64,000 bases of DNA from Escherichia coli. Its GTDB lineage: Bacteria > Pseudomonadota > Gammaproteobacteria > Enterobacterales > Enterobacteriaceae. Position numbers and translations under genes: made by a program. The stretch is taken from NCBI RefSeq assembly GCF_003790525.1, contig NZ_CP033635.1. One strand, 5' to 3'. Under the pieces are notes generated by a model. The model was given only the letters and a program-made list of their open reading frames with translations. It was not told the origin of the DNA and ran no database searches. Shown piece by piece: positions 258-32,235 of the stretch; position 1 is the first letter of the stretch; each line of letters begins with the position of its first letter.

Positions 258-1592
258 TCAGAACATACTCACCACAAGAAATCCCAGAAGCACTGAGAAA
301 GCAATAGCCAGTACACCCGGAATAAAGAAAGCATGGTTGAACACATACTTACCAATACGGGTCGTTCCTGTGTCATCCATTTGCACCGCCCCCAGAAGGG
401 TTGGGTAAGTTGGTAACACAAATAAAGCAGACACAGCAGCAAAAGAAGCTACCAGCATGTAACTGTCATCCGGATTCGCTGCAGTAATACCCAATGCAGT
501 CACAATAGCCGGAGTGATAGCTTTGGCAGTTGCAGCCTGTGAATACAGAAGCATCGCAGCCAGGAAAAATACCACAGCCAGAAGAGCTGGATACTGGGAT
601 ACAGTAGTTCTGGCAAGCTCCTTAATTTCTCCTGAATGACCAGATACAAAAGTGTCCCCCAACCATGCCACACCCAGTACACAGATACAGGCAACCATGC
701 CTGACTTGAACACAGAGGAGTCCGCAATCTTGTTTATATCTGCTTTACAGAAAAGGGTAATGAATCCGCCAACCAGTAGCATGAGACTCATAATAGCCGC
801 ATCACGACTAACAACAACGTTATCAATCAGACCCAGCGTCGGGCTAATGGCCGAAGCGTAAAGGACCACCAGGATGACGCCAATAAGGAAAATTGCGACA
901 GATCGTCTGGCATAAGGCTTGAGCTGTTTGTTAACACTCTTTACTGGCGCGCTTACGAGTCCTTTGGAAAGACGCTCCCGGTAAACCGGATCATTGTCTA
1001 ATTTCATGTCAGAAATCAGACTGATTATAAATGCGGTAAGCATGCAACCAACGAATGTGGTAAACAACCATATCCCAAGCAATACTGGATAACTCCACCC
1101 AAAGCCTTCCAGTACGCCAGACATATAGATAACGGCAGCCGATACAGGTGATGCTGTAATTGCAATTTGAGATGATACAACCGCAATTGAGAGCGGACAT
1201 GAGGGCTTAATGTTTTGTTCTTTGGAAACTTCGACAATTACAGGGATCATTGAAAATGCAGTATGTCCCGTACCGGCAAAGATTGTCAGCACATAAGTGA
1301 CAACCGGAGCCAGGTAATTAATATATTTTGGATTTTTACGAAGAATTCGTTCAGCGACCTGAACGAGATAGTCCAGTCCTCCCGCCAGTTGCATGGCCGA
1401 AATAGCAGAAATTACCGATGCAATAATTAGAATCACATCCCAGGGGATATTACCAGGCTTCATATCCAGACAAAGCCCCAGAATCAATACCCCAATGCCA
1501 CCGGCATAACCAATACCAATCCCGCCCATACGGACACCCAAAAAGATTGCCCCCAGCAGAACCACTATCTGAAGAACAGTGATAATATCCAT
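258..1592 (-). CDS. Dcu-family anaerobic C4-dicarboxylate transporter (DcuA/DcuB-like divergent paralog)
   Basis: 444-aa polytopic membrane ORF; N-terminal block (GGIGIG..GVLILG..KPGNIP.DVI) and C-terminal blocks (LLYSQAATAKA, LPTYPTL, QMDDTGTTRIGK) match the DcuA/DcuB family as recalled; differs from K-12 DcuA so treated as a paralog. Confidence 0.85.
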   Translation of the reverse strand: MDIITVLQIVVLLGAIFLGVRMGGIGIGYAGGIGVLILGLCLDMKPGNIPWDVILIIASVISAISAMQLAGGLDYLVQVAERILRKNPKYINYLAPVVTYVLTIFAGTGHTAFSMIPVIVEVSKEQNIKPSCPLSIAVVSSQIAITASPVSAAVIYMSGVLEGFGWSYPVLLGIWLFTTFVGCMLTAFIISLISDMKLDNDPVYRERLSKGLVSAPVKSVNKQLKPYARRSVAIFLIGVILVVLYASAISPTLGLIDNVVVSRDAAIMSLMLLVGGFITLFCKADINKIADSSVFKSGMVACICVLGVAWLGDTFVSGHSGEIKELARTTVSQYPALLAVVFFLAAMLLYSQAATAKAITPAIVTALGITAANPDDSYMLVASFAAVSALFVLPTYPTLLGAVQMDDTGTTRIGKYVFNHAFFIPGVLAIAFSVLLGFLVVSMF

Positions 1593-1747
1593 GATTCTCT
1601 CCCGAATTAGTGAGACACCTTTACCCCTGAGCTCCTCTCAACAAAGGCCTTATGGAATGTATTTTTACAAACATCCGGGCAGAGGACTGATACGTTTTCA
1701 TTCGCGCCATCCCCTGCCGGATCTCCCTTCTTACAGATTCTGAACAA

Positions 1748-3148
1748 TTATTGTTCGAACTTCGGAGCAATCAGATTATCCAGATTGAATGTCTTCTCCC
1801 ATTCTTCCTGTGTGAGTAGCTTACGTTCGACAACCACTATCTGATGGAGGGATTTGCCTGTATGGTATGCTTCGTGCGCCATTTCAGAACACACCTTATA
1901 TCCCAGATGTGGCTTCAGGAGAGTCACAATACCGCAGGAATGCATTACCATCTCTGCAGTTCGATCGGAATTAGCTGTAATGCCATCAATGCATTTAGTT
2001 CGGAGTGTGTTACAGGCATTCGTCATCACCTTGAGTGAGGTGAACAGCGCAAAGGTGATGACCGGCTCCATAACGTTAAGCTCAAGCTGACCAGCAGATG
2101 CCGCCAGCATCACTGTGGTGTCCAGCCCCTGAACCAGGAAGCAAGACTGGTTTGTTACTTCCGGGATAACGGGGTTAACCTTACCAGGCATAATGGAAGA
2201 ACCCGGTTGCAATTGAGGCAGGTTAATTTCAGCCAGGCCGCAACGGGGGCCTGAAGCAAGCAGTCGAATGTCATTACAAACCTTGGTAAGCTTCACAGAG
2301 AGGCTCTTCATGGCCGAACTGAGTGCAACATATGCACCACAGTCGCTTGTGGCAGCGATGAGATCTTCACTGTTCCTGAAATTAATGCCTGTGATCTGGG
2401 CCAGATATTTCACGGCTAAAGCGGGATAATCCGGGTGAGCGGTAACACAGGTACCAATCGCAGTAGCACCAAGGTTTACAACCCGCAGGTGTTCCTGTGC
2501 ATTACGGATGACCCGAATTTCATCATTAATTGTAAAACCCCAGCCATGGAACTCCTGGCCGAGAGTCATTGGCACTGCATCCTGCAGGTGAGTACGTCCC
2601 ATCTTGAGCACTGTGCTGAACTCGTCAGCCTTTTTGTAGAATGCTCCTACGAGGTGTTCAACAGCTTCAAGCAATACATTGCTTCGCAGCAGCAATGCCA
2701 GATGTAATGCTGTCGGATATGTATCATTGGTGGACTGACCAAAATTAGCATGGTCGTTTGGCGAAACGCGTTTGTAATCCCCTTTAACGCTACCAAGTTT
2801 TTCTGCAGCAAGATTACAAATCACTTCATTGCAGTTCATATTGGTTGACGTTCCGGCTCCCCCCTGAAGCCAGTCGGTCACAAACTGTTCCCGGTACTTA
2901 CCATCAATTAATTGGTCGCAAGCCCAGATTAAAGCATCCGCAACATCAGCAGGAATTGTACCTAACTCCTTATTAGCCATCGCAGCTGCTTTTTTCACAT
3001 AACCGAAGGCAATGATGAAGAAGGGCTCCTGACTCATTGGCATTTCAGTAATATGGAAATTATCCTCACCACGAAGTGTCTGAACACCATAATAGCAATC
3101 ATCCGGAACTTCACGCTCACCAAGGAAATCGCTTTCAATACGAGACAT
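1748..3148 (-). CDS. aspartate ammonia-lyase / class II fumarase family protein (copy A)
   Basis: 466-aa ORF; MSRIESDFLGEREVPDD..YYGVQTLRG N-terminus, GGAGTSTNMN and GSSIMPGKVNPVIPE signature blocks typical of aspartase/fumarase C family; near-identical inverted copy at 30835-32235. Confidence 0.88.
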   Translation of the reverse strand: MSRIESDFLGEREVPDDCYYGVQTLRGEDNFHITEMPMSQEPFFIIAFGYVKKAAAMANKELGTIPADVADALIWACDQLIDGKYREQFVTDWLQGGAGTSTNMNCNEVICNLAAEKLGSVKGDYKRVSPNDHANFGQSTNDTYPTALHLALLLRSNVLLEAVEHLVGAFYKKADEFSTVLKMGRTHLQDAVPMTLGQEFHGWGFTINDEIRVIRNAQEHLRVVNLGATAIGTCVTAHPDYPALAVKYLAQITGINFRNSEDLIAATSDCGAYVALSSAMKSLSVKLTKVCNDIRLLASGPRCGLAEINLPQLQPGSSIMPGKVNPVIPEVTNQSCFLVQGLDTTVMLAASAGQLELNVMEPVITFALFTSLKVMTNACNTLRTKCIDGITANSDRTAEMVMHSCGIVTLLKPHLGYKVCSEMAHEAYHTGKSLHQIVVVERKLLTQEEWEKTFNLDNLIAPKFEQ

Positions 3149-4013
3149 AATTTTCTAACTCCATTTTTCGAAAACAATGTGACAATAACAAATTGTTTTC
3201 ATAAAACACTTATCCAACATTAAGAATGAATACTTATAATCACCAGATGACATAACCATTACCATCTAATGGAATATATTTAAACTAATAAGATAAACTT
3301 AAAACGTGATATCAAGCACATTTTTATAACGTTAAAATTAGTGGGTTATTTAGCAATCAAATATAACCAGTAAAAGCCCGAAATATGCAGATAACGCTGC
3401 ACTAATATGATTAAGATCAAAAAAAACAATTCCGCAATCAAACTTATTATTAATGCTGATTTTTTAAATCATGATTAAGTAGAACTATTTTATAATAGCA
3501 TCCCGGTTTGGTCACATCCTTCAGAAAAACAACCTGTTTACCACCATAGAAAATCTATATCTCTGCTAGGTTTTCCAGCGTTGTAGATATAGTCACTCAT
3601 GGTGATTCTTATTAAGATAAGAGTTTTTACACGGGAATGTTATTGCACTTCTAATTGATAAATCTTGGAATAGAGTAGAAAACGTAATGTTTCCACTCCA
3701 TCTTCCGCTTTAATGGTTTGTAATTTGAGTTAGATCATGGATTTTAACATCCATTATGATTAATTATTTTTAGATGATTTGATCACTAAATCGTCTTTCA
3801 GGGTGTAACGGCATTAATCATCACAAGCTAAAAAAACGCCATACTGTAATGGAGTCTGTATTTTATGTTCAATCATGCAAAGGCTCTTCATAATTATCAT
3901 TTCTCTCTTGGAAAAATGACAGCCTGAACATAGCATAAATTCACGTTCTTCAGAGTCAGAAGGTGTTAATAAACTGTCCCTAAAATCTGGAAAATGTTGA
4001 AGAAGGCATCTCA
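3149..4013. promoter_or_regulatory. AT-rich divergent intergenic region between aspartase-like copy A (minus) and pepT-like gene (plus); likely carries both promoters
   Basis: about 865 bp without convincing ORF, strongly AT-rich, flanked by divergently oriented start codons. Confidence 0.3.
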
Positions 4014-5270
4014 ATGGATATTGTCGAACGCTTTATCAATTATACAAAAATTAATACCACTACCTCACGAGAAAACGGCGCAAAAGGGATCATGCCTTCA
4101 TCTCCTGGTCAGATGAAACTTGCGAAATTGTTGGTGAGTGAACTTGAAGCATTGGGTATGGAGGATATTATTCTCAGAGAGAATGCTATCGTAACAGCAA
4201 CACTCCCTGCAAATACTGACGAAACAATCCCCGTCGTTTCCTTTTTTGGACATCTGGACACCAGTGCCGAACAGACAGCCGATACAAAAGCGCAACGATT
4301 ACCTTATAATGGGGGCGATCTCTGTCTGAACCCTGAACTGAATATTTATTTGCGTGAGAGTGAATTCCCGGAGCTCAAAAATTATATTGGCGATGACCTT
4401 ATAGTGACAGATGGTACCAGCCTTCTGGGGGCCGATGATAAAGCGGCGCTGGCGGCCATAATGAACGCACTTCAATTTCTGATTTCTCATCCTGAAATCA
4501 GGCATGGAGAAGTTAAAGTTGGGTTTGTGCCAGATGAAGAGCAGGGGTTACGGGGGGCCAAAGCCTTCGATGTTTCAGAGTTTGGCGCAGATTTTGGCTA
4601 CACTCTGGATTGCTGCGGTATTGGAGAATTTGTTTACGAAAACTGGAATGCGGGTGATGCAGAAATTATCTTTACCGGCCAGTCTGCACACCCTATGTCA
4701 GCGAAAGGCAAGCTTAAGAACTCTCTTTTGATGGCTCACAAATTCATTTCGATGTTGCCAGGAGGAGAAGCGCCTGAATATACAGAAGGACGCGAAGGCT
4801 ATTATTGGGTGAAACAGTTACAGGGAAACAGTGCCAGAACTGTACTAAAACTGGATATACGAGATTTCAGCGAGGAAGGATATCACGCCCGGAAGACATT
4901 TGTACGCCAGCTTGCAGAAAGTGCTTGTGCATTATGGGGAGAAGGAAGCGTGATCTGCCAACTGAGCGATCGGTACGCCAATGTCTTTAACAGTCTGCAG
5001 GGAGAGGGGCATTATCCCATCGACATTGCCCTGCGAGCTTACCAACGATGTGGTATTACTCCGACACCGGTGGCGATGCGTGGAGGATATGATGGCGCTG
5101 TTCTTTCACAAAAAGGATTACCCTGCCCGAACATTTTTACCGGCGCACATAATTTCCATTCTATCTATGAATATCTTCCAGTCCGTTCACTTCGGGCGGC
5201 AAGTGATGTGGTTATTGCCATCATTCAGGAGACATTCAATGGGTTCACCACAGGGAATCGTGAGTCATGA
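4014..5270 (+). CDS. peptidase T-like tripeptidase (M20B family metallopeptidase)
   Basis: 418-aa ORF; blocks FFGHLDTS, TDGTSLLGADDKAA, VGFVPDEE, IFTGQSAHP resemble PepT/M20 family as recalled. Confidence 0.8.
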   Translation: MDIVERFINYTKINTTTSRENGAKGIMPSSPGQMKLAKLLVSELEALGMEDIILRENAIVTATLPANTDETIPVVSFFGHLDTSAEQTADTKAQRLPYNGGDLCLNPELNIYLRESEFPELKNYIGDDLIVTDGTSLLGADDKAALAAIMNALQFLISHPEIRHGEVKVGFVPDEEQGLRGAKAFDVSEFGADFGYTLDCCGIGEFVYENWNAGDAEIIFTGQSAHPMSAKGKLKNSLLMAHKFISMLPGGEAPEYTEGREGYYWVKQLQGNSARTVLKLDIRDFSEEGYHARKTFVRQLAESACALWGEGSVICQLSDRYANVFNSLQGEGHYPIDIALRAYQRCGITPTPVAMRGGYDGAVLSQKGLPCPNIFTGAHNFHSIYEYLPVRSLRAASDVVIAIIQETFNGFTTGNRES

Positions 5271-6628
5271 TTAAAGTTGTTATCGCGCTTCTTGTTATCG
5301 TGATAGTTGCTCGCTTAATCCTGAAAGGATATCGTGCAGAACCCGTGCTTTTTATTGCCGGGCTTGCGCTGATGGTTTGTACCTGGTTTACCGGTTGGGG
5401 CACAGTGTTACCGAAGGGCGTGTCCGGTACAGGAATTAGTTTTCTTGATCCTTTCGAAGTCATGCGCAATTTATTCAGTACCCGTGCGGCTGATCTCGGT
5501 CTGATGATTATGACCCTGATGGGATTTGCGCATTACATGGACCATATCGGTGCGAATGAAGCGGTTGTCCGTGTGGTAACCCGGCCATTACGGACATTAC
5601 GTTCCCCCTATGTTCTGCTTTTTTTCTCTTATCTTTTCGCCAGTCTTCTTCAACTGGCTATCCCCTCAGCTACCGGACTTGCTGTTTTACTGATGGGAAC
5701 CATGTTTCCTATTATGCTCGGACTCGGGCTGTCAGCAGCGTCTGCCGCAGGGGTAATTGCCACCTCTCTTGGTGTGGCGTACACACCGACAGCCATTGAC
5801 GCCATACGAGGCTCTGAAGCGGTAAATATGGATGTGGTGGAGTATGTTGTCTATCATCAGGGGCCTGCTGCTCTGGCGACTGTTCTGATTGTCGGTATCA
5901 GCCACTTTTTCTGGCAGAAACACTGTGATCGTAAAGCTGGAACATTACCTCATGAAATTGGTACGACAACGGTCATAAAAGCAGGCAGTACGCCGGCTTA
6001 TTATGCTCTGCTACCTATGCTACCGATCCTGATGGCCGTTGGCTCATCGGAGATTTTTGTCACCGGAATTAATCTCAATATCATTACGATTGTTCTTATC
6101 TCAATGGCAATTTGCATGCTGATCGAATGGGTCCGTAAATGTGATCTGAAAGCTGTATGTGACGGGTTTACCCATTTCCTGAAAGGAATGGGGACAGCAT
6201 TTACCGGCGTGGTGGGCTTACTGGTGGCCGCAGGTGTGTTTGCTCATGGGATTAAAAGCATTGGCGCGATAGATCAATTAATTTTGATGGCAGAGCACGT
6301 TGGGTTACCCCCTTTTGCGATGGGCATCGTTTTTGCTCTGGTTACACTGGCTGCAGCTGTCATTATGGGATCGGGCAATGCGCCATTTCTGGCTTTTGTT
6401 GAACTGATACCACAAATCGCTGCCAGCATGGGCGTGAATGCCATATCGATGATCCTGCCTATGCAGCAGGCTTCCCATATGGGGCGTGCGATGTCTCCCG
6501 TATCTGGCGTGGTTATAGCGGTTTCCAGTGGAGCAAATATAACTCCCTTCGAAGTGGTAAAACGCACTGCTTTACCCCTGATAGTTGGTTTTGTTTTTCA
6601 CTCTGCGATTATCGGTATTTTTTATTAA
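5267..6628 (+). CDS. DcuC-family (C4-dicarboxylate anaerobic carrier-like) transporter
   Basis: 453-aa membrane ORF; similarity to DcuC as recalled (ARLILKGY.., GNAPF.AFVE.IP, PVSGVV.AV); start ATG overlaps pepT-like stop (ATGA), so translationally coupled. Confidence 0.75.
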
Positions 6629-6639
6629 CTTGTTTTAGA

Positions 6640-8000
6640 TTGTCATCCTCCACGCCCAGAAGGATGTGGATTCCTGCTAATCAGGCTATTGCCGGAATCA
6701 TTTCGGTGGGCTCCTGCTTAAACAAAAGGCCTGACTGCACCATCTCTTTACAGGCAAGTACGGCGTGCCCTGCAGCTAAAATATTACGGGTGCCGTTTAC
6801 ATCGGCGCTCGCTGCATATGTGCGCCGGGCATGGCGCGTAGCGCCGTGACTGGCGCTGTTCTTCAACTGTGGTGGCTGAAGAACGACTAAGAGGTGAAAG
6901 TCCTCCACACACCCGGTGAGGGGAAGTGTTAGCGGAAGGCAAGGGTGTTCATCGCGAGGTGAAATCTGAAGGAAGCCGGATGCAAAATGCTGGCCTGACG
7001 AACAGGAAGCGGTTAAGGCGGCGCAGCAGGGTAAGGTGGCACAAATCACCAAAGCCCGATACTCACACGGAACGCTGTGACGTAAAGCCGACAGGCATAA
7101 GCAGGAAAGTCGCGTGAATTACCCCGGGAGATCTGTCGCCCTGCCAGTGTGCTACCGGTGCCGTGAGGCGCCGGGATGGGGCGGCAGAAGTCAGCCGACG
7201 CCGTAGTAGTGCTGCAAAACCGGCAGCATGAAGGGCCGAACATGATTAACTGTGATTAGGACATCCGAACCCGATGATGATTAATGAAGCACACGCGCAG
7301 GCAACTGCGGCCAGCGGCAGAGGAGACGGACAGTATCCGTCAGGGCTGCATGATGGCGCTGAAATCAGCACGGCGGCGGGTGGGCAAACGAAAGCGGAAG
7401 TGCCGCTGACGATGGAAGCGGTGATAACGAGAGAAAACCTGATGCTGGCTTATCAGCGCGTGGTGGAAAACAAAGGTGTGTCGGAGTTGAAACCGTGGCT
7501 GAAGAAGAACTGGCGCAGCGTATGGCAGGTATTGATTGACGGAAACTACCAGCCGCGGGCAATACGCCGGATGGATATCCCGAAGCCGGATGGCGGCGTG
7601 AGAACCTTAGGCATCCCGACGGTGGTGGACAGGCTTATCCAGCAGGCGATAGCGCAGCAGTTAAGCGCCATCGTGGACACAGCTTCTGCCGCTACGCAGA
7701 CGACTGCAACATCTACGTAAGCAGCCGGAAAGCGGGCGACCATCTGCTGAAGGACATCAGGGCGTTCGTGGAGAGCAAACTGAAACAGAAGGTGAATGAG
7801 AAGAAGAGCGCGGTGGCGCGCCCGTGGGAGCGGAAGTTGTGGGCTGACAGTGACGGACCGTGCTGCTTCACCAAACGCCTTGGACGGCAGGCGGAACTTG
7901 GATCGTTACGTACTTGAAAAGTGGATCAACAAGAGGGTTCAACGAGACTGGGGAGTTATATTTCTTTCTCAAGGTCCGGCATTTATCTCTTCCACATGAA
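6640..8000 (+). mobile_element. group II intron remnant (5' RNA domains plus internally deleted reverse-transcriptase/maturase ORF); boundaries approximate
   Basis: ORF 7274-7720 has the RT domain 0-2 signature (ENLMLAYQRV..IPKPDGGVRTLGIPTVVDRLIQQAIAQQL); a downstream frame has RYADDCNIYV..KLKQKVNEKKSAVARPWERK (RT domain 5-7 and thumb); the intervening RT domains are missing and no domain V/VI was seen. Confidence 0.7.
7274..7720 (+). pseudogene. group II intron reverse transcriptase/maturase, N-terminal fragment (internally deleted, frameshifted)
   Basis: see group II intron remnant; RT motifs split between frames, indicating deletion. Confidence 0.7.
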
Positions 8001-8243
8001 ATCTCGATATAAAGTCAGACACGGATGTCCTACTGAAAGCGGGGGGAAGTATGGTGATAGAGGTCAGCGGGAACCTATCCATAAAAGTCACTCATTACAC
8101 TAAAAAATATGTGCATATTATTTGCGTGCAATTAAATTTTGCAAAATCGAATTAGCATAATTTTTTTTGATAGAAGTCAAATAAACATAATGGAAAAAGT
8201 TTAAATATTTATATTGTATAAACTTCAGACAAAAGGAGGAGTT

Positions 8244-9275
8244 ATGAATAAAATAAAAGGTATAACAGTAATGGCAGCCTTCGCATTGTGTATAGGATAT
8301 GCTCACGCTGAATCTCAAACGCCAATACGCCTTGTAATTCATGGTGGAGCTGGCACCATAACAAAAGATACTATTACACCTGAACAAGAAAAACAATACA
8401 GAGAAAAGTTAACAGATGCACTAAATGCTGGGTATGCTGTGCTTAATAGTGGAGGAAGTAGCCTTGATGCTGTTCAGCGTGCAATTAATGTTATGGAGGA
8501 CTCTCCCCTCTTCAATGCTGGAAAAGGCGCTGTCTTTACTCATGATGGCAAAAACGAACTTGATGCTGCAATTATGGATGGAAAAACCAAAATGGCCGGA
8601 GCCGTTGCAGGAGTGACGACCATAAAAAACCCTATAAACGCTGCTTATGCAGTTATGACTAAAAGCCCTCATGTATTAATGATCTCTAATGGTGCGGAAC
8701 TATTTGCAAAAGAGCAAGGCTTAGTTATGGTTGAGCCAGCATATTTCAAAACTGATTTCCGTTGGCAACAGCTACAGAACGCTTTAAAAGACGAAAAAAT
8801 AACCCTTGATCATAATGGTAAATCAGCATCTCTTTTACTCCCCCCAAAGAACTACGACTATAAATATGGAACTGTTGGAGCAGTCGCGTTGGACAAAGAT
8901 GGTAATCTGGCAGCTGGAACATCAACAGGAGGTATGACAAATAAACGTTACGGACGCGTAGGTGACTCGCCAATAATTGGAGCAGGAACCTATGCCGATA
9001 ATAATACCGTTGCTGTTTCTGCTACAGGTACTGGAGAAATGTTTATTAGAACTTCAACTGCATACAATATTGCTGCTCAGGTGAAATATAAAAATACACC
9101 ATTGAAAGAAGCAGCTCAAAATGCGCTTGATGAAGTTAAAAACATTAATGGTAGTGGTGGTGTCATTGTTCTAGATAAGAATGGTAATTATACTATGAGT
9201 TTCAATACAGAAGGGATGTATCGTGGAACTATCGGCAACGATGGTAAAGCTATCGTATCAATTTATGAACAATAG
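8244..9275 (+). CDS. isoaspartyl peptidase / L-asparaginase family Ntn-hydrolase with N-terminal signal peptide (periplasmic)
   Basis: RBS AAGGAGG 7 nt upstream of ATG 8244; signal peptide MNKIKGITVMAAFALCIGYAHA; blocks GTVGAVALD.DGNLAAGTSTGGMTNK and GTGE.FIR match IaaA/plant-type asparaginase family. Confidence 0.85.
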   Translation: MNKIKGITVMAAFALCIGYAHAESQTPIRLVIHGGAGTITKDTITPEQEKQYREKLTDALNAGYAVLNSGGSSLDAVQRAINVMEDSPLFNAGKGAVFTHDGKNELDAAIMDGKTKMAGAVAGVTTIKNPINAAYAVMTKSPHVLMISNGAELFAKEQGLVMVEPAYFKTDFRWQQLQNALKDEKITLDHNGKSASLLLPPKNYDYKYGTVGAVALDKDGNLAAGTSTGGMTNKRYGRVGDSPIIGAGTYADNNTVAVSATGTGEMFIRTSTAYNIAAQVKYKNTPLKEAAQNALDEVKNINGSGGVIVLDKNGNYTMSFNTEGMYRGTIGNDGKAIVSIYEQ

Positions 9276-9304
9276 ATAAAATATTTTATACATCGTCTTG
9301 CCCT

Positions 9305-9338
9305 TAAGGCCCATTTTAAAAGCGGGCCTTTATTTAAT
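9305..9338 (+). terminator. rho-independent terminator after isoaspartyl peptidase gene
   Basis: stem AAGGCCC/GGGCCTT followed by T-rich run. Confidence 0.6.
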
Positions 9339-9571
9339 AAATATTCTTAACGCCTCCTTATTTCACAGCTAAAAGAAGAGTAATTCTTAGACTCATTAAC
9401 CGTCTCTCTACCGAGACGCTTACCCATATCCAGCCCGTACCCTGCAGAAATACCGCGATGTATAGCGTTTCTGTGTCATGGTGAAAAGTACAGGAGGAAA
9501 TTATAAATTCTGGGAATATCCCTGGTTATAACATTTTGTAATACATTAAGTGATATCATTATTTATGATGT

Positions 9572-9605
9572 AAAAAGGGGCCTGCAATAGCCCCTGAAAA
9601 ATCAG
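9572..9605. terminator. bidirectional hairpin terminator (AGGGGC..GCCCCT flanked by A/T runs) downstream of the minus-strand small gene
   Basis: perfect 6-bp stem with A-run upstream and downstream. Confidence 0.5.
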
Positions 9606-9612
9606 AAAACCT

Positions 9613-9891
9613 TCATTTTATACCTGCAGCGCTCATTGACTGCCGCAGTGCATCCAGTCCTTGCTTACAGGCCATATCCTGACTGGCGTCAGGTAAAGCT
9701 GCAATTTGTTTTCGGGATTGTTCATATTGCTGTTTCAGCGTATTAACCTGTGCTTCTGGTGTTCCCATTTCCTTCATCTTTGCTACAAAATTATCGATTT
9801 CTTTATAATACTCTTCACATGCCGGAGTCAGTGCTGCACTGGCTGACATACTGAATAATACTGTAGTAAGTAAGACTGTAATTGTTTTCAT
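9613..9891 (-). CDS. small secreted protein of unknown function (signal peptide, two Cys)
   Basis: start at internal Met with AAGGAG RBS; MKTITVLLTTVLFSMSASA signal peptide; 92 aa. Confidence 0.6.
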   Translation of the reverse strand: MKTITVLLTTVLFSMSASAALTPACEEYYKEIDNFVAKMKEMGTPEAQVNTLKQQYEQSRKQIAALPDASQDMACKQGLDALRQSMSAAGIK

Positions 9892-10249
9892 AAATACACT
9901 CCTTTTTTGTACAAAAACACTCAACCTTCCTGAGAAGGCCATAAAAGCAGAATGTTATTGGAATATCAGCAAAACGAGTATTCCCACAGGTTTTTTCTTG
10001 GTATCAGAATTCTGGGATATAAATCCAGTAAATGATGGAGTAAGTCCGAAAGAATATGTGGTGTGATTACGGACTACCAGTAAATATTACTGATTTCATG
10101 CCATGAAAATACTCATTATAAAAAGCGCCTGTATGCTGCTTATAAAATATCAGAATCCGATGTGTCAAAATGTGATATATATTAAAAAATAAATAAGACT
10201 GACCCAATATACCAAAAGAGGATGACAGAAGTGAAGGATAACCGTATTA

Positions 10250-11344
10250 TTCTGGACCAGAAAGGAGCCTGTACATAGATTTGTGTAATTGCCTGATTTT
10301 GATATGTTCAATTCACCTTCAAATGAAGGTGAATTTATGGCCGACAAACAATTGCAGGCTCTGGCTAACGAACTGGCCAAAAATCTCAAAACTCCTGAAG
10401 ATCTCAGTCAGTTCGATCGCCTGCTCAAGAAAATCAAAGTTGAGGCTGCTCTCAACGCTGAACTGACTCACCATCTGGGACATGAAAAAAATCAACCCAA
10501 ATCGGGAACCAACTCCCGTAATGGCTATTCCACGAAAACCGTCCCACTACCGACGGGCCGATGGAATTACGTACTCCACGTGATCGTGATGGTTCCTTCG
10601 AACCACAACTGGTGAAGAAAAATAAGACCTGCATTATCGGCATGAACAACCAGATCCTGGCGCTGTATGCCAGAGGGATGACTACTCGCGAAATTACCTC
10701 AGTCTTCAAAGAAATGTACGATGCAGACGTTTCTCCGGCGCTGATATCGAAAATCACCGATGCCGTAATCGACCAGGTTGTAGAATGGCAAAACCGTCCT
10801 CTGGATGCGATTTATCCCATTGTTTATCTTGACTGTATTGTCCTGAAAGTACGGCAGGACAGCCGGGTTATCAGCAAAGCGGTGTTCCTGGCTCTGGGTA
10901 TTAACCTTGATGGTCAGAAAGAGCTGCCAGGTATGTGGCTGGCCGAAAATGAAGGTGCAAAGTTCTGGCTGAATGTACTGACGGAACTGAAAAATCGCGG
11001 CCTGAACGATATCCTTATCGCCTGCGTGGACGGCCTGAAAGGCTTCCCGGAAGCGATTAATGCCGTCTACCCGGAGACGCAGCTCCTGTTGTGCATAGTA
11101 CATATGGTACGCAACAGCCTGCGGTTAGGGCGTGGAAAGACTATAAAGCGGTAACCCGTGACCTGAAACAGGTTTACCACACAGCCACGGAAGAAGGCGC
11201 GTTGCAGGCGCTGGATGCGTTCGGGAAGGAATGGGATGCACGGTACCCGCAGATAAGTCGCAGCTGGCAGGCAAACTGGCCGAATGTTGCCACCTTCTTC
11301 GTGTACCCGGAGGCGAGCCGCAAGGTTATAATAAATAACCGTCA
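10250..11344 (+). mobile_element. IS256-family insertion sequence remnant (3' end interrupted)
   Basis: transposase ORFs 10337-11340 match IS256-family (mutator-type) transposase blocks (TREI..FKEMYDADVSP, YPIVYLDCIVLKVRQ, LIACVDGLKGFPEAI); C-terminal about 80 aa missing at junction with IS50-like element. Confidence 0.75.
10337..11340 (+). pseudogene. IS256-family transposase (frameshifted, C-terminally truncated)
   Basis: coding split over three frames (10337-10615, 10561-11154, 11091-11340). Confidence 0.75.
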
Positions 11345-12760
11345 ATACGGTGCTCCGTTAACGCTTACGTCTGTTATGGTACTTTCTGATTGTTATTCAT
11401 GGGCTAACGAGCAGTTTGGACATGCCAGTCTCGGTGATCCGCGTCGTACACGACGCCTTGTGTCACTGGCCTCTTCTCTCGCTCAGCATGCAGGTCTTTC
11501 TATCGTGAAATCATCCCAGTCCACTGCTCAGGTTGAAGGTGCGTACCGCCTGATGCGTAACCCGTCAGTGTCTCCGGAAGCCATTGCCGAAGCCGGATTT
11601 ACCGCCACTGCAAGGGCATGTGAGGCACATCCGCTGCTCCTCGCACTGGAAGACACCACCACCATTAGTTTCAGCCACAGTACGGCATTTGATGACCTAG
11701 GGAATACCACTACTAACCCGAAGACGCGCGGGCTGCTGGCTCACTCTGTCCTGATGTATGCCCCCGACAGCGCCCTGCCAGTCGGTCTTATCGAACAGCA
11801 GCGCTGGAGTCGGGCCACGGACACCTACGGTGTTAAGCACCAGCGAAAAGAACGTCCCTGTGAAGAAAAAGAAAGTTATCGCTGGCAGCAGGCTTCGGAG
11901 CGTATGGCTGAACGGCTGGGGGAGATACAGAAACGGGTAATCACTGTCTGTGGCCTGGAAGCGGATATCTGGCATTACCTGCATTATAAAGTCAGCCACG
12001 GACAGCGCTTCGTGGTGCGTGCTGCACAGAATAGCCGGCAGGAAGAAGCACCCGGCAAGCTCTTCGAACTGCCGGAAGTCCTGACAACCGCATGAAGCCA
12101 CATGCTGAATGTGATGTAAAAAGGCGGGCGCGCAGCCCGCCAGGCCCGGATGTTCACCAGTTACAGCGAAGTCGGCATAAAAAATCCCGACAACAGCGGC
12201 CAGGCGCTTCCGCTCACGTATGTCTGTTGCCGGGAGCAGGCAGAGGACGGTGCCTGCTGGCATCTGCTGACATCAGAAAAAGTGGCGAGTGCCGCCGATG
12301 CGCGACGTATCGTCAGCCATTACGAGCGACGCTGGTTGATAGAGGAATACCACAAGGCGTGGAAAAGTGGTGGTACATGTGTGGAATCGCTGCGTATGCA
12401 GACCCGGGATAACCTTGAGCGCATAGTGGTTATCAAGGCGTTTATCGCGGTACGGGTGCTGGGCCTGCGGCAGGGAGGTATCAGTGAAGAAACACAAAAT
12501 GACAGCTGTGAGAAAATACTGTTGCCGACAGAGTGGAAACTGCTGTGGGTTAAGCTGGAAGGAAAACCGCTTCCGTCACAGACGCCGACACTGAAATGGG
12601 CCTGTCTGAAACTGGCGAAACTGAGGCGATGGCATGACAGCAAACGCACAGGTCGCCCCGGTTGTGTAGTCATGTGGGATGGCTGGTTCAGACTTCAGGA
12701 TATGGTTGAGGGTTACCTGGTGATGGAGTCTCTTGATCAGGAGCTCTGATCAAGAGACAG
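11345..12760 (+). mobile_element. IS4-family (IS50/Tn5-transposase-like) element inserted into the IS256-like remnant; left boundary approximate
   Basis: transposase similar to Tn5 Tnp as recalled (LGDPRRTRRLV, LALEDTTTISFSH, RWLIEEYHKAWKSG, WHDSKRTGRPG); right end CTGTCTCTTGATCAGAGCTC (revcomp at 12741-12760) resembles IS50 inside-end sequence. Confidence 0.7.
11376..12749 (+). pseudogene. IS4-family (Tn5-like) transposase, frameshifted (11376-12095 and 12150-12749)
   Basis: two consecutive ORFs in different frames together cover a Tn5-like transposase. Confidence 0.7.
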
Positions 12761-12905
12761 CTAGTACAGTAGGGGGTACCATTATTTAATTCCTGCAGTA
12801 CCAATTAACACAGAGCATTCTGCCTCTGTGAACATATGATATCCAGACTTGACTAATTGTTATTGTGAATGTTTTTATTGCTGTTTTAGCCTCTAATCGA
12901 TGCTT

Positions 12906-13619
12906 TCAGTGTTCCAGCGCGATAGCGCAAACATGTTCAAGCTTAGAGAGTGAATGGTATAGTTCTGGTAATGTCATTTTTTTTCTAATCACGACCTTAA
13001 GGTTAACTTCTATTCTTCCCTTTTTAACATCGCGAATAGTGAACGCTTCAATAATATTTTTTTGTTGATTAATACACTCTATCAGGGCTTGTAGCCCTGA
13101 TCTTTCGTCAAGAGTAACATGAACTTTTACTTTACCCGGAAATTGATTCTTAGCTTGCAAAAAGAGCACAAAATAGCTGAGTTTTATTGCAATCATGAAC
13201 AAAGCAGTGGTAACCAAAGCATGCATATAAAACCCAGCACCACATGTAATTCCCACCCCAGCCGAAGCCCAAACGATAGCTGCAGTTGTTAGTCCAGATA
13301 TAGCATCGTCATGGCGATGAAGGATAACACCTGCGCCGAGAAAACCTACACCGCTGATAATCTGTGCTGCCAGTCGCATCGGATCGCTACGTATATTCAT
13401 CGAGATTTCAGCGTAATATTCTGCAGACTGAATCGATACAATTGTCAGAACACAACTGGCGACTGAAATAATGACGCACGTTTTAAATCCAACAGGCTTC
13501 CCTTTCGATTCTCTTTCAAGGCCAATAATGCCACCAAGGATAAACGCGACGCAAATTTTGCCCAGTGTAATAAAGAGAGATTCTTCTTCACTGAATAATA
13601 AGAAGGATAACGTATTCAT
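12906..13619 (-). CDS. MgtC/SapB family membrane protein
   Basis: 237 aa; N-terminal hydrophobic domain with GIIGLERE motif typical of MgtC family, plus soluble C-terminal domain. Confidence 0.75.
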   Translation of the reverse strand: MNTLSFLLFSEEESLFITLGKICVAFILGGIIGLERESKGKPVGFKTCVIISVASCVLTIVSIQSAEYYAEISMNIRSDPMRLAAQIISGVGFLGAGVILHRHDDAISGLTTAAIVWASAGVGITCGAGFYMHALVTTALFMIAIKLSYFVLFLQAKNQFPGKVKVHVTLDERSGLQALIECINQQKNIIEAFTIRDVKKGRIEVNLKVVIRKKMTLPELYHSLSKLEHVCAIALEH

Positions 13620-18804: not shown

Positions 18805-20102
<1,298 letters not shown>

Positions 20103-26030: not shown

Positions 26031-26770
26031 TAAATATCCTCCGGCATAGCCGGAGGTTTTTCAAATGCGCCTATAAGGCTCTCTTACCAGCCGCGCCCTA
26101 ACAGGCGCACACGATCTGACATTTGCATCCAACTTCGTTACTCACGGTCCATAAACGCGCTGCCCAGGTAGGGAATCGATAACTGCTCTCCCATTTTATC
26201 CTCTTCAAGCTGGTGCTTTATGTAATCCTGTATCTTCGCCGTGTTCTTACCCACCGTATCGACTTAGTACCCACTGCACCAGAACTCCCTGTTCCTGTAT
26301 TTGAATTTCAAATCACCAAACTGCTCGTAAAGCATCAGACTGCTTTTCCCTTTCAGATATCCCATAAAGCCGGATGCGCTCATTTTGGGCGGGATCTCCA
26401 CAAGCATATGGATATGATCTGCACAGCACTCAGCTTCAAGAATCCGTACGCTTTTCCACTCACACAGCTTTCTCAAAATACTGCCTGTTGCTCTACGCTT
26501 CTCTCTGTAGAACACTTGTCTTCGGTATTTTGGCGCAAAAACTATGTGATATTTACAGTTCCATCGGGGTGCGCTAGCTCTTTTCGTTCCCCATTGGGTC
26601 CCCCTTTTGATTTTTTGTTTGACACTTGCTGTTGCCATACCGCAAGGTGTTTTAACAAATCAAAAGAGGTTTTAATAACTGGCTCAAAACTGAAAGCTTT
26701 CCGGAACCCCCAGCCTGGCTGGGGAGCTGTGCACAAAAAAGCACCTCCACAAACAGGAGGTGCAATTCGA
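26031..26770 (-). mobile_element. IS200 (IS200/IS605 family) element with characteristic left-end hairpins; boundaries approximate
   Basis: TnpA Y1-transposase ORF; left-end terminator hairpin GCACCTCC..GGAGGTGC plus T-run (26735-26763) and second hairpin CCCCAGCC..GGCTGGGG (26707-26725); no terminal inverted repeats, as expected for IS200. Confidence 0.8.
26138..26638 (-). pseudogene. tnpA: IS200 transposase TnpA (HUH/Y1) with in-frame nonsense codon (TAA at 26264-26266)
   Basis: WNCKYHIVFAPKYRR..ILEAECCADHIHMLVEIPPK matches IS200 TnpA; ORF stops at GY* and the same frame continues VDTVGKNTAKIQDYIKHQLEEDK to the natural stop at 26138. Confidence 0.8.
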
Positions 26771-30612: not shown

Positions 30613-30834
30613 TAGAATCATAATTTTCATTCTTTATGGAAGTAGTTACAGAGTTACTATTTGATAATTAGTCAGGCAGTTAATCTGCATTCAGTTACTG
30701 ACTGTCAGAAGAATTCTGACAGATTGATATCACATGTTATTTCAATGATGTAAGAATTCAAATTCCGAGAGCATAGCTCCGGTTAAACAATTTGTTATTG
30801 TCACATTGTTTTCAAATAATGGAGTTAGAATATT

Positions 30835-32235
30835 ATGTCTCGTATTGAAAGCGATTTCCTTGGTGAGCGTGAAATTCCGGATGATTGCTATTATGGTGTT
30901 CAGACACTTCGTGGAAAAGATAATTTCCATATCACTGAAATGCCAATGAGTCAGGAGCCTTTCTTCATCATTGCCTTCGGTTATGTGAAAAAAGCAGCTG
31001 CGATGGCTAATAAGGAGTTAGGTACAATTCCTGCTGATGTTGCGGATGCTTTAATCTGGGCTTGCGACCAATTAATTGATGGTAAGTACCGGGAACAGTT
31101 TGTGACCGACTGGCTTCAGGGGGGAGCCGGAACGTCAACCAATATGAACTGCAATGAAGTGATTTGTAATCTTGCTGCAGAAAAACTTGGTAGCGTTAAA
31201 GGGGATTACAAACGCGTTTCGCCAAACGACCATGCTAATTTTGGTCAGTCCACCAATGATACATATCCGACAGCATTACATCTGGCATTGCTGCTGCGAA
31301 GCAATGTATTGCTTGAAGCTGTTGAACACCTCGTAGGAGCATTCTACAAAAAGGCTGACGAGTTCAGCACAGTGCTCAAGATGGGACGTACTCACCTGCA
31401 GGATGCAGTGCCAATGACTCTCGGCCAGGAGTTCCATGGCTGGGGTTTTACAATTAATGATGAAATTCGGGTCATCCGTAATGCACAGGAACACCTGCGG
31501 GTTGTAAACCTTGGTGCTACTGCGATTGGTACCTGTGTTACCGCTCACCCGGATTATCCCGCTTTAGCCGTGAAATATCTGGCCCAGATCACAGGCATTA
31601 ATTTCAGGAACAGTGAAGATCTCATCGCTGCCACAAGCGACTGTGGTGCATATGTTGCACTCAGTTCGGCCATGAAGAGCCTCTCTGTGAAGCTTACCAA
31701 GGTTTGTAATGACATTCGACTGCTTGCTTCAGGCCCCCGTTGCGGCCTGGCTGAAATTAACCTGCCTCAATTGCAACCGGGTTCTTCCATTATGCCTGGT
31801 AAGGTTAACCCCGTTATCCCGGAAGTAACAAACCAGTCTTGCTTCCTGGTTCAGGGGCTGGACACCACAGTGATGCTGGCGGCATCTGCTGGTCAGCTTG
31901 AGCTTAACGTTATGGAGCCGGTCATCACCTTTGCGCTGTTCACCTCACTCAAGGTGATGACGAATGCCTGTAACACACTCCGAACTAAATGCATTGATGG
32001 CATTACAGCTAATTCCGATCGAACTGCAGAGATGGTAATGCATTCCTGCGGTATTGTGACTCTCCTGAAGCCACATCTGGGATATAAGGTGTGTTCTGAA
32101 ATGGCGCACGAAGCATACCATACAGGCAAATCCCTCCATCAGATAGTGGTTGTCGAACGTAAGCTACTCACACAGGAAGAATGGGAGAAGACATTCAATC
32201 TGGATAATCTGATTGCTCCGAAGTTCGAACAATAA
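30835..32235 (+). CDS. aspartate ammonia-lyase / class II fumarase family protein (copy B)
   Basis: 466 aa, differs from copy A at about 2 residues (V14I, E28K); about 50 bp of upstream sequence is also shared. Confidence 0.88.
   Translation: MSRIESDFLGEREIPDDCYYGVQTLRGKDNFHITEMPMSQEPFFIIAFGYVKKAAAMANKELGTIPADVADALIWACDQLIDGKYREQFVTDWLQGGAGTSTNMNCNEVICNLAAEKLGSVKGDYKRVSPNDHANFGQSTNDTYPTALHLALLLRSNVLLEAVEHLVGAFYKKADEFSTVLKMGRTHLQDAVPMTLGQEFHGWGFTINDEIRVIRNAQEHLRVVNLGATAIGTCVTAHPDYPALAVKYLAQITGINFRNSEDLIAATSDCGAYVALSSAMKSLSVKLTKVCNDIRLLASGPRCGLAEINLPQLQPGSSIMPGKVNPVIPEVTNQSCFLVQGLDTTVMLAASAGQLELNVMEPVITFALFTSLKVMTNACNTLRTKCIDGITANSDRTAEMVMHSCGIVTLLKPHLGYKVCSEMAHEAYHTGKSLHQIVVVERKLLTQEEWEKTFNLDNLIAPKFEQ

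Follow-up and report, generated by a model that had tools for sequence, protein, structure and literature searches.

The DNA considered here is a stretch of 64,000 nucleotides from Escherichia coli contig NZ_CP033635.1, referred to below as the window. As judged by alignment, the interval between dcuC and an isoaspartyl-peptidase/asparaginase-like gene is pieced together from four mobile-element fragments that are unrelated to one another. In the direction of dcuC transcription these are an IS609-like remnant on the opposite strand (6639-6819), a truncated group II intron (6820-7838, plus strand), a scrap from the interior of an IS66-family accessory gene (7839-7887, plus strand) and a piece of a 'baseplate protein' gene (7882-8094, plus strand). 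The intron fragment starts 192 nt beyond the stop codon of dcuC and has the same orientation as dcuC, the IS609-like remnant separating the two. The mobile-element fragments differ in G+C content from the flanking genes, the intron having 58% as against 40-47%. An earlier note on this DNA had taken the whole of 6640-8000 for a decayed intron; these bounds were wrong, since the flanks are IS609-like, IS66 and phage-plasmid remnants.

The intron fragment of 1019 bp is almost certainly a non-functional, truncated copy of E.c.I6, a class C (IIC) group II intron of E. coli. This assignment comes from alignment to the E.c.I6 copy of strain CFT073 and to two plasmid-borne references: an intact intron of 1919 bp on the Escherichia fergusonii plasmid NZ_AP028825 (locus L003, 4004-5922) and the corresponding island on the E. 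coli plasmid NZ_AP022088 (locus L002). Over its retained parts the fragment showed 94-99% nucleotide identity to intact introns bearing ltrA and to the CFT073 copy. Its first nucleotides, GTGCG at 6820-6824, fit the GUGYG boundary consensus and line up with the start of six full-length copies; the alignments to L003 and L002 place the start at 6820, where the sequence reads GTGCGCC. At the other end intron homology ceases at 7838, in the middle of the open reading frame, and some 530 bp are missing from the 3' end. What survives is the GTGCG 5' end, ribozyme domains D1 to D4a, together with two stretches (codons 1-143 and 261-311) of a 462-aa reverse transcriptase (RT)/maturase. What has been lost is 24 bp in RT0, 346 bp covering RT3/RT4 (with a frameshift) and the last ~530 bp with the maturase/X domain, D5 and D6. 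BLAST searches of the 64-kb window returned none of the absent intron or IS parts, the 3' 530 bp included.

Two Rfam covariance models describe the ribozyme part: RF02001 matched 6948-7117 with 140.2 bits and RF01998 matched 7152-7236 with 71.9 bits, so that D1-D4 are represented between 6948 and 7236. Both matches cover the full length of their models and lie on the plus strand, just upstream of the RT reading frame. RF00029, the model for D5/D6, gave no match in the whole window at its gathering score, nor within 6000-9000 at E<=10; it was found in the intact relative L003 with 48.5 bits, where it corresponds to D5/D6. Because the catalytic domain V and the branch-point domain VI are absent, the sequence is to be regarded as an intron fragment and not as a functional intron. 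The Rfam search returned further full-length matches at a distance from the intron. A match to isrC, a family of Salmonella small RNAs (19872-19994, minus strand, 150 bits), maps to about 1115151-1115273 in E. coli SMS-3-5, inside the 5' part of the transposase gene of the IS3-like element ISEc31, and appears to be IS sequence. A match to STnc490 (26604-26727, minus strand, 122 bits) is located immediately upstream of a tnpA pseudogene that the SMS-3-5 annotation assigns to the IS200/IS605 family; STnc490 is presumably the antisense RNA to the IS200 5'-UTR, and the location fits.

The protein-coding part of the intron is in two pieces. The open reading frame at 7274-7720 (plus strand) encodes RT0 to RT2 followed by an out-of-frame tail of 13 aa. 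It matched positions 2-93 of TIGR04416 (group II intron RT/maturase) with E=2.4e-22 and its alignment with the intact 462-aa protein spans residues 1-143, except for 8 aa that were deleted at 7475/7476. The second piece, at 7684-7838 in a shifted frame, encodes the RT5-RT7 segment FCRYADDCNIYV...ARPWERK, corresponding to residues 261-311 (TIGR04416 209-256; RVT_1 149-192). In the alignment to the intact relative, residues ~144-260, which comprise RT3/RT4, are missing. Apart from TIGR04416 2-93 and 209-256, in two frames, nothing of the protein remains, and GIIM, the thumb/X maturase domain, is absent from the fragment. Pfam searches of the intact 462-aa protein recovered RVT_1 and GIIM only and no endonuclease domain, a statement about the relative, as the C-terminus of the fragment's own protein is missing. 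RefSeq carries the 148-codon frame 7274-7720 as a real protein, 'maturase' WP_001327935.1, with no pseudogene flag. This frame is a pseudogene piece.

Most of what the earlier note had read from the letters is thereby upheld. Rfam, TIGR04416 and the alignments to intact copies all point to a decayed group II intron whose RT carries an internal deletion. RT0-2 motifs do lie in 7274-7720, with the RYADDC region following in another frame, and the central finger/palm motifs have been deleted as supposed. Domains V and VI are indeed missing. Of the checks it had proposed, the covariance-model search recovered the group II D1-D4 models (140 and 72 bits), and comparison with an intact homologue set the 5' end and defined the missing segments relative to L003. 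Its 'thumb' after RYADDC was a misreading; that stretch contains RT5-RT7 and nothing further.

The two internal deletions differ in their consequences. The 24-bp deletion at 7475/7476 is in frame and removes the RT0 segment AAGVDNLS, as determined by alignment to the intact protein. The 346-bp deletion at 7670/7671, located by alignment to L003 and L002, shifts the frame, as 346 is not divisible by three. At its junction (7671-7679, plus strand) stands the sole remaining copy of a 9-nt direct repeat, TCGTGGACA, which in undeleted copies flanks the segment on both sides (at 7072 and 7418 in L002, and at 4879 and 5225 in L003). A repeat search of the undeleted copy missed this pair, since an indel splits the repeat after 9 nt; an exact search found both members. 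When positions 7072-7417 of L002 were removed in silico, the result was the 1019-bp fragment of the window with two substitutions.

The fragment has been recorded before. Leclercq and Cordaux (2012, PLoS One; PMC3522654) described E.c.I6-tr1 in E. coli SMS-3-5 as a class C intron with an internal deletion and a degraded region, and their Table S3 places it on the minus strand of NC_010498 at 1127307-1127474/1127497-1128304. These coordinates map to 7838, 7671 and 6841 of the window, with the same deletion point. Under their naming rule a copy must exceed 90% nucleotide identity with the E.c.I6 reference, and E.c.I6-tr1 was given 94/98%. The CFT073 copy (NC_004431 4320108-4321914) showed 95.4% identity to the window over intron positions 22-829 (98% if the 24-bp gap is ignored) and 94.6% over the second block, 852-1019, in line with the published values; both retained blocks therefore exceed the 90% limit. 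The published entry comprises 976 aligned bp, the true length being 1019 bp here, and nothing of substance differs. The difference of 21 nt at the 5' end arises because CFT073 E.c.I6 lacks 19 nt near its own 5' end.

The 5' exon of the intron is the remnant of an IS609-like element (IS200/IS605 family) that comprises the 3' end of tnpB/insQ and the right end of the element. The last 45 codons of tnpB/insQ and the stop codon are retained (6681-6818, 138 nt). Positions 6639-6819 showed 85% nucleotide identity to K-12 insQ/IS609 over 181-183 nt, the homology ending precisely where the intron begins, and the translated C-terminal peptide aligns with that of K-12 insQ. RefSeq labels the remnant a partial InsQ/TnpB pseudogene. 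Pfam and NCBIfam searches of the 45-aa piece gave no match because it is too short; the DNA homology to IS609 settled its identity. BLAST did not locate the rest of the element within the 64-kb window. The region 6639-6819 contains what we take to be the part encoding the scaffold of the TnpB guide (omega) RNA. The 32-mer GGGTGCCGTTTACATCGGCGCTCGYTGCATAT could serve as a tag for the insertion site: its continuation as GTGCGCC would mark an intron-bearing copy, while an uninterrupted tnpB would continue with a sequence resembling CCACATACC... at this point.

Class C introns characteristically insert just after a stem-loop or terminator (PMC1702495; PMC3522654). In six full-length copies at independent locations (L003, L007-L011) and in CFT073 E.c.I6 a strong stem-loop was found 6-14 nt upstream of the intron in 7/7 cases. 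Most of these stem-loops are followed by a T-run, i.e. they are intrinsic terminators, and the final exon nucleotides before the full-length copies are (G/T/C)TAT or TTGT. Upstream of the window copy a candidate target hairpin is predicted at 6788-6810 (plus strand), with the structure GGGTGCCG-TTTACAT-CGGCGCTC and eight pairs, two of which are G.T/G.U. It is separated from the intron by the 9-nt spacer GCTGCATAT, and CATAT precedes the junction. This hairpin is placed as are those upstream of the seven full-length copies. It lacks a T-run, and with DNA parameters its predicted fold is not superior to those of shuffled sequences (z = -0.33). Since it is weak and on a par with the shuffles, hairpin-directed insertion of the window copy is plausible rather than demonstrated.

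The 3' flank is made up of smaller scraps. The IS66 fragment adjoining the intron (7839-7887) is internal to the accessory gene (IS66 tnpB); many IS66 tnpB genes match it over 42 nt with 93% identity, and L003 7106-7158 over 53 nt with 88.7%. The adjoining 213 nt, ahead of the asparaginase-like gene, match a 'baseplate protein' gene with 87% identity over the full 213 nt. The matching sequences are E. coli plasmid records of ~90-100 kb, here termed phage-plasmids. RefSeq marks a frameshifted pseudogene at 7882-8094.

Over positions 1-31914 the window was 99.997% identical to E. coli SMS-3-5 in BLAST comparison. A 1501-bp sequence containing the locus is identical among the top matches listed, and about 220 complete E. 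coli records have the locus in one piece. The flanking island genes are present in 225/5426 E. coli genomes, and an empty site, with dcuC joined directly to the asparaginase gene, occurred in 0/225 of the genomes bearing the island. The form lacking the 346-bp deletion is confined to four plasmids within the E. coli genome set, or five in PLSDB, all of 135-184 kb; these copies share the 5' junction, the 24-bp deletion and the 3' truncation with the window copy. The 346-bp deletion is thus a handy marker, separating ~220 deleted records, nearly all of them chromosomes, from the few undeleted plasmid copies. E. coli holds thousands of other IS609 copies, none of which had an intron at the same position; the only hits were 222 records of the same island locus. 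This argues for a one-off insertion and not for a homing site.

The region is accessory and mobile, as seen from its patchy distribution and its presence on plasmids. The earlier suggestion of horizontal acquisition is right for the region, in view of the 225/5426 genomes and the conjugative plasmids; it is this distribution that reveals it, not the intron. The island, with genes for aspA, dcuA, pepT, dcuC, asparaginase, a DUF5339 protein and a nucleoside hydrolase, was also seen on conjugative IncF/IncI plasmids (L002 1-13846 corresponds to 600-13500 of the window), and the chromosomal copy has IS256 and IS4 pseudogenes and an MgtC gene that are missing from the island on the L002 plasmid. 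Aspartate ammonia-lyase sequence is present as an inverted duplication (2069-3198 and 30785-32235, 99.2-99.4% identity), and the island holds two pairs of aspA and a C4-dicarboxylate transporter gene. The window strain lacks an IS3 insertion of ~1.2 kb that SMS-3-5 has beside the second aspA.

It might be asked whether the RT pieces come from an intron at all. A decayed RT of another kind (retron, Abi or DRT defence RT, DGR) would be the alternative, and fragments of the sequence did give weak secondary matches to retron and Drt models (E = 0.01-0.07). However, TIGR04416 was the better match by many orders of magnitude, group II D1-D4 models score 140 and 72 bits just upstream, and the nucleotide sequence shows 94-99% identity to complete introns with D5/D6. 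A non-intron origin is hardly conceivable in the face of these Rfam and alignment results, which refute it. More remote still is the thought that frameshift and deletion are sequencing or assembly artefacts of one genome. The 1501-bp sequence is the same in the top matches listed, some 220 records have the locus in one piece, and the undeleted form exists separately on plasmids; recurrence across records refutes this explanation. That the element might still function, either as an ORF-degenerate intron served by a maturase acting in trans or as a split intron with D5/D6 at a distance, is marginally less far-fetched and still highly improbable. D1-D4a are nearly intact, and intact E.c.I6-like ltrA genes exist elsewhere in many E. 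coli strains. Against this, neither RF00029 nor the 3' 530 bp found a match in the 64-kb window, and the homology breaks off in mid-ORF beside unrelated IS66 debris. A group II ribozyme without D5 has no catalytic centre.

The position of the insertion requires separate consideration. The earlier note took the insertion to lie next to the pepT-dcuC operon, probably behind its terminator, and the E.c.I6 family does insert after terminators; the distance of the fragment from the dcuC stop and its orientation would also suit this. Yet the 181 nt in between are the 3' end of an IS609-like tnpB and its right end, on the other strand and homologous up to the junction, the hairpin closest to the junction lies within tnpB coding sequence, and a scan of the plus strand from 6400 to 6820 detected no terminator-like site between dcuC and the intron. 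Insertion after a dcuC terminator is therefore very unlikely. The earlier idea holds in kind, given that the family inserts after hairpins in 7/7 cases, and fails for the site itself, where the hairpin is inside an antisense tnpB.

The following history would account for the truncated E.c.I6 copy. An active intron ribonucleoprotein may have reverse-spliced into DNA a few nucleotides past the stem-loop in the antisense 3' end of the IS609-like tnpB, beyond dcuC; we infer this step because the class C family behaves in this way. The 24-bp loss in RT0 and the 3' truncation, the latter accompanied by loss of the remainder of the IS, would have come next, in either order. The truncation would have taken the 3' ~530 bp (~900 bp in present-day terms), including the X/maturase domain, D4b, D5 and D6, and the 3' junction now holds an internal IS66 scrap and a scrap of a phage-plasmid gene. 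Finally, 346 bp were lost by slippage or recombination between the TCGTGGACA repeats, in the lineage of the ~220 records that are nearly all chromosomes. Comparison with the plasmid-borne form, which has the other lesions without this one, shows this last step. Neither a full intron in the same IS609-like site nor an empty site was found in E. coli, so the original state is one that we infer. The insertion had been called datable; with no empty site and no calibrated clock, the data give the relative order of events only. The 100% conservation across ~220 records is accounted for by recent spread of the island.

As the fragment has no D5/D6, no intact RT and no maturase domain, it should be unable to splice or move, and by its sequence it is inert DNA carried along with the accessory pepT-dcuC/asparaginase island. 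There is a very small chance that its RNA has some effect. Because the plus strand showed no terminator-like site from dcuC to the intron, transcription of the pepT-dcuC mRNA could run on into D1-D4a and give it a long 3' extension of structured RNA. In addition, or instead, the tnpB 3' end and the right end of the IS609-like remnant, on the other strand, might supply a resident IS609 TnpB with an orphan guide-RNA scaffold. Either could affect expression of dcuC or of the asparaginase-like gene.

The fragment is thus already known, ordinary and catalogued since 2012, and it matters little. It is a textbook case of intron death, by truncation and short-repeat slippage among IS and phage scraps in a mobile island, and agrees with the extinction dynamics reported for introns of Enterobacteriales in work that already included this fragment in its count. 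The additions made here are minor: the IS609-like host site, the 9-nt repeats, the undeleted intermediate on plasmids and the recognition of the RefSeq 'maturase' as a pseudogene piece.

Compared with known systems, the window copy shares its 5' end, D1-D4 and the start of the reading frame with the intact E.c.I6-like introns that carry a 462-aa ltrA, such as L003 and L007, the latter from the chromosome of E. coli M19. These introns differ in having 1919 bp, the complete series RT0-7, GIIM, D5 and D6, and in the strong terminator hairpins with T-runs upstream of them. A similar comparison can be made with class C introns in general, for example B.h.I1 (Robart et al. 2007; PMC1702495). Unlike introns of the B.h.I1 type, the window copy is a non-functional fragment, and its hairpin is weak and lies inside tnpB instead of forming a terminator. 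The likeness to B.h.I1 lies in a candidate insertion site a few nucleotides past a stem-loop, the short IBS1 and a family protein without an endonuclease domain.
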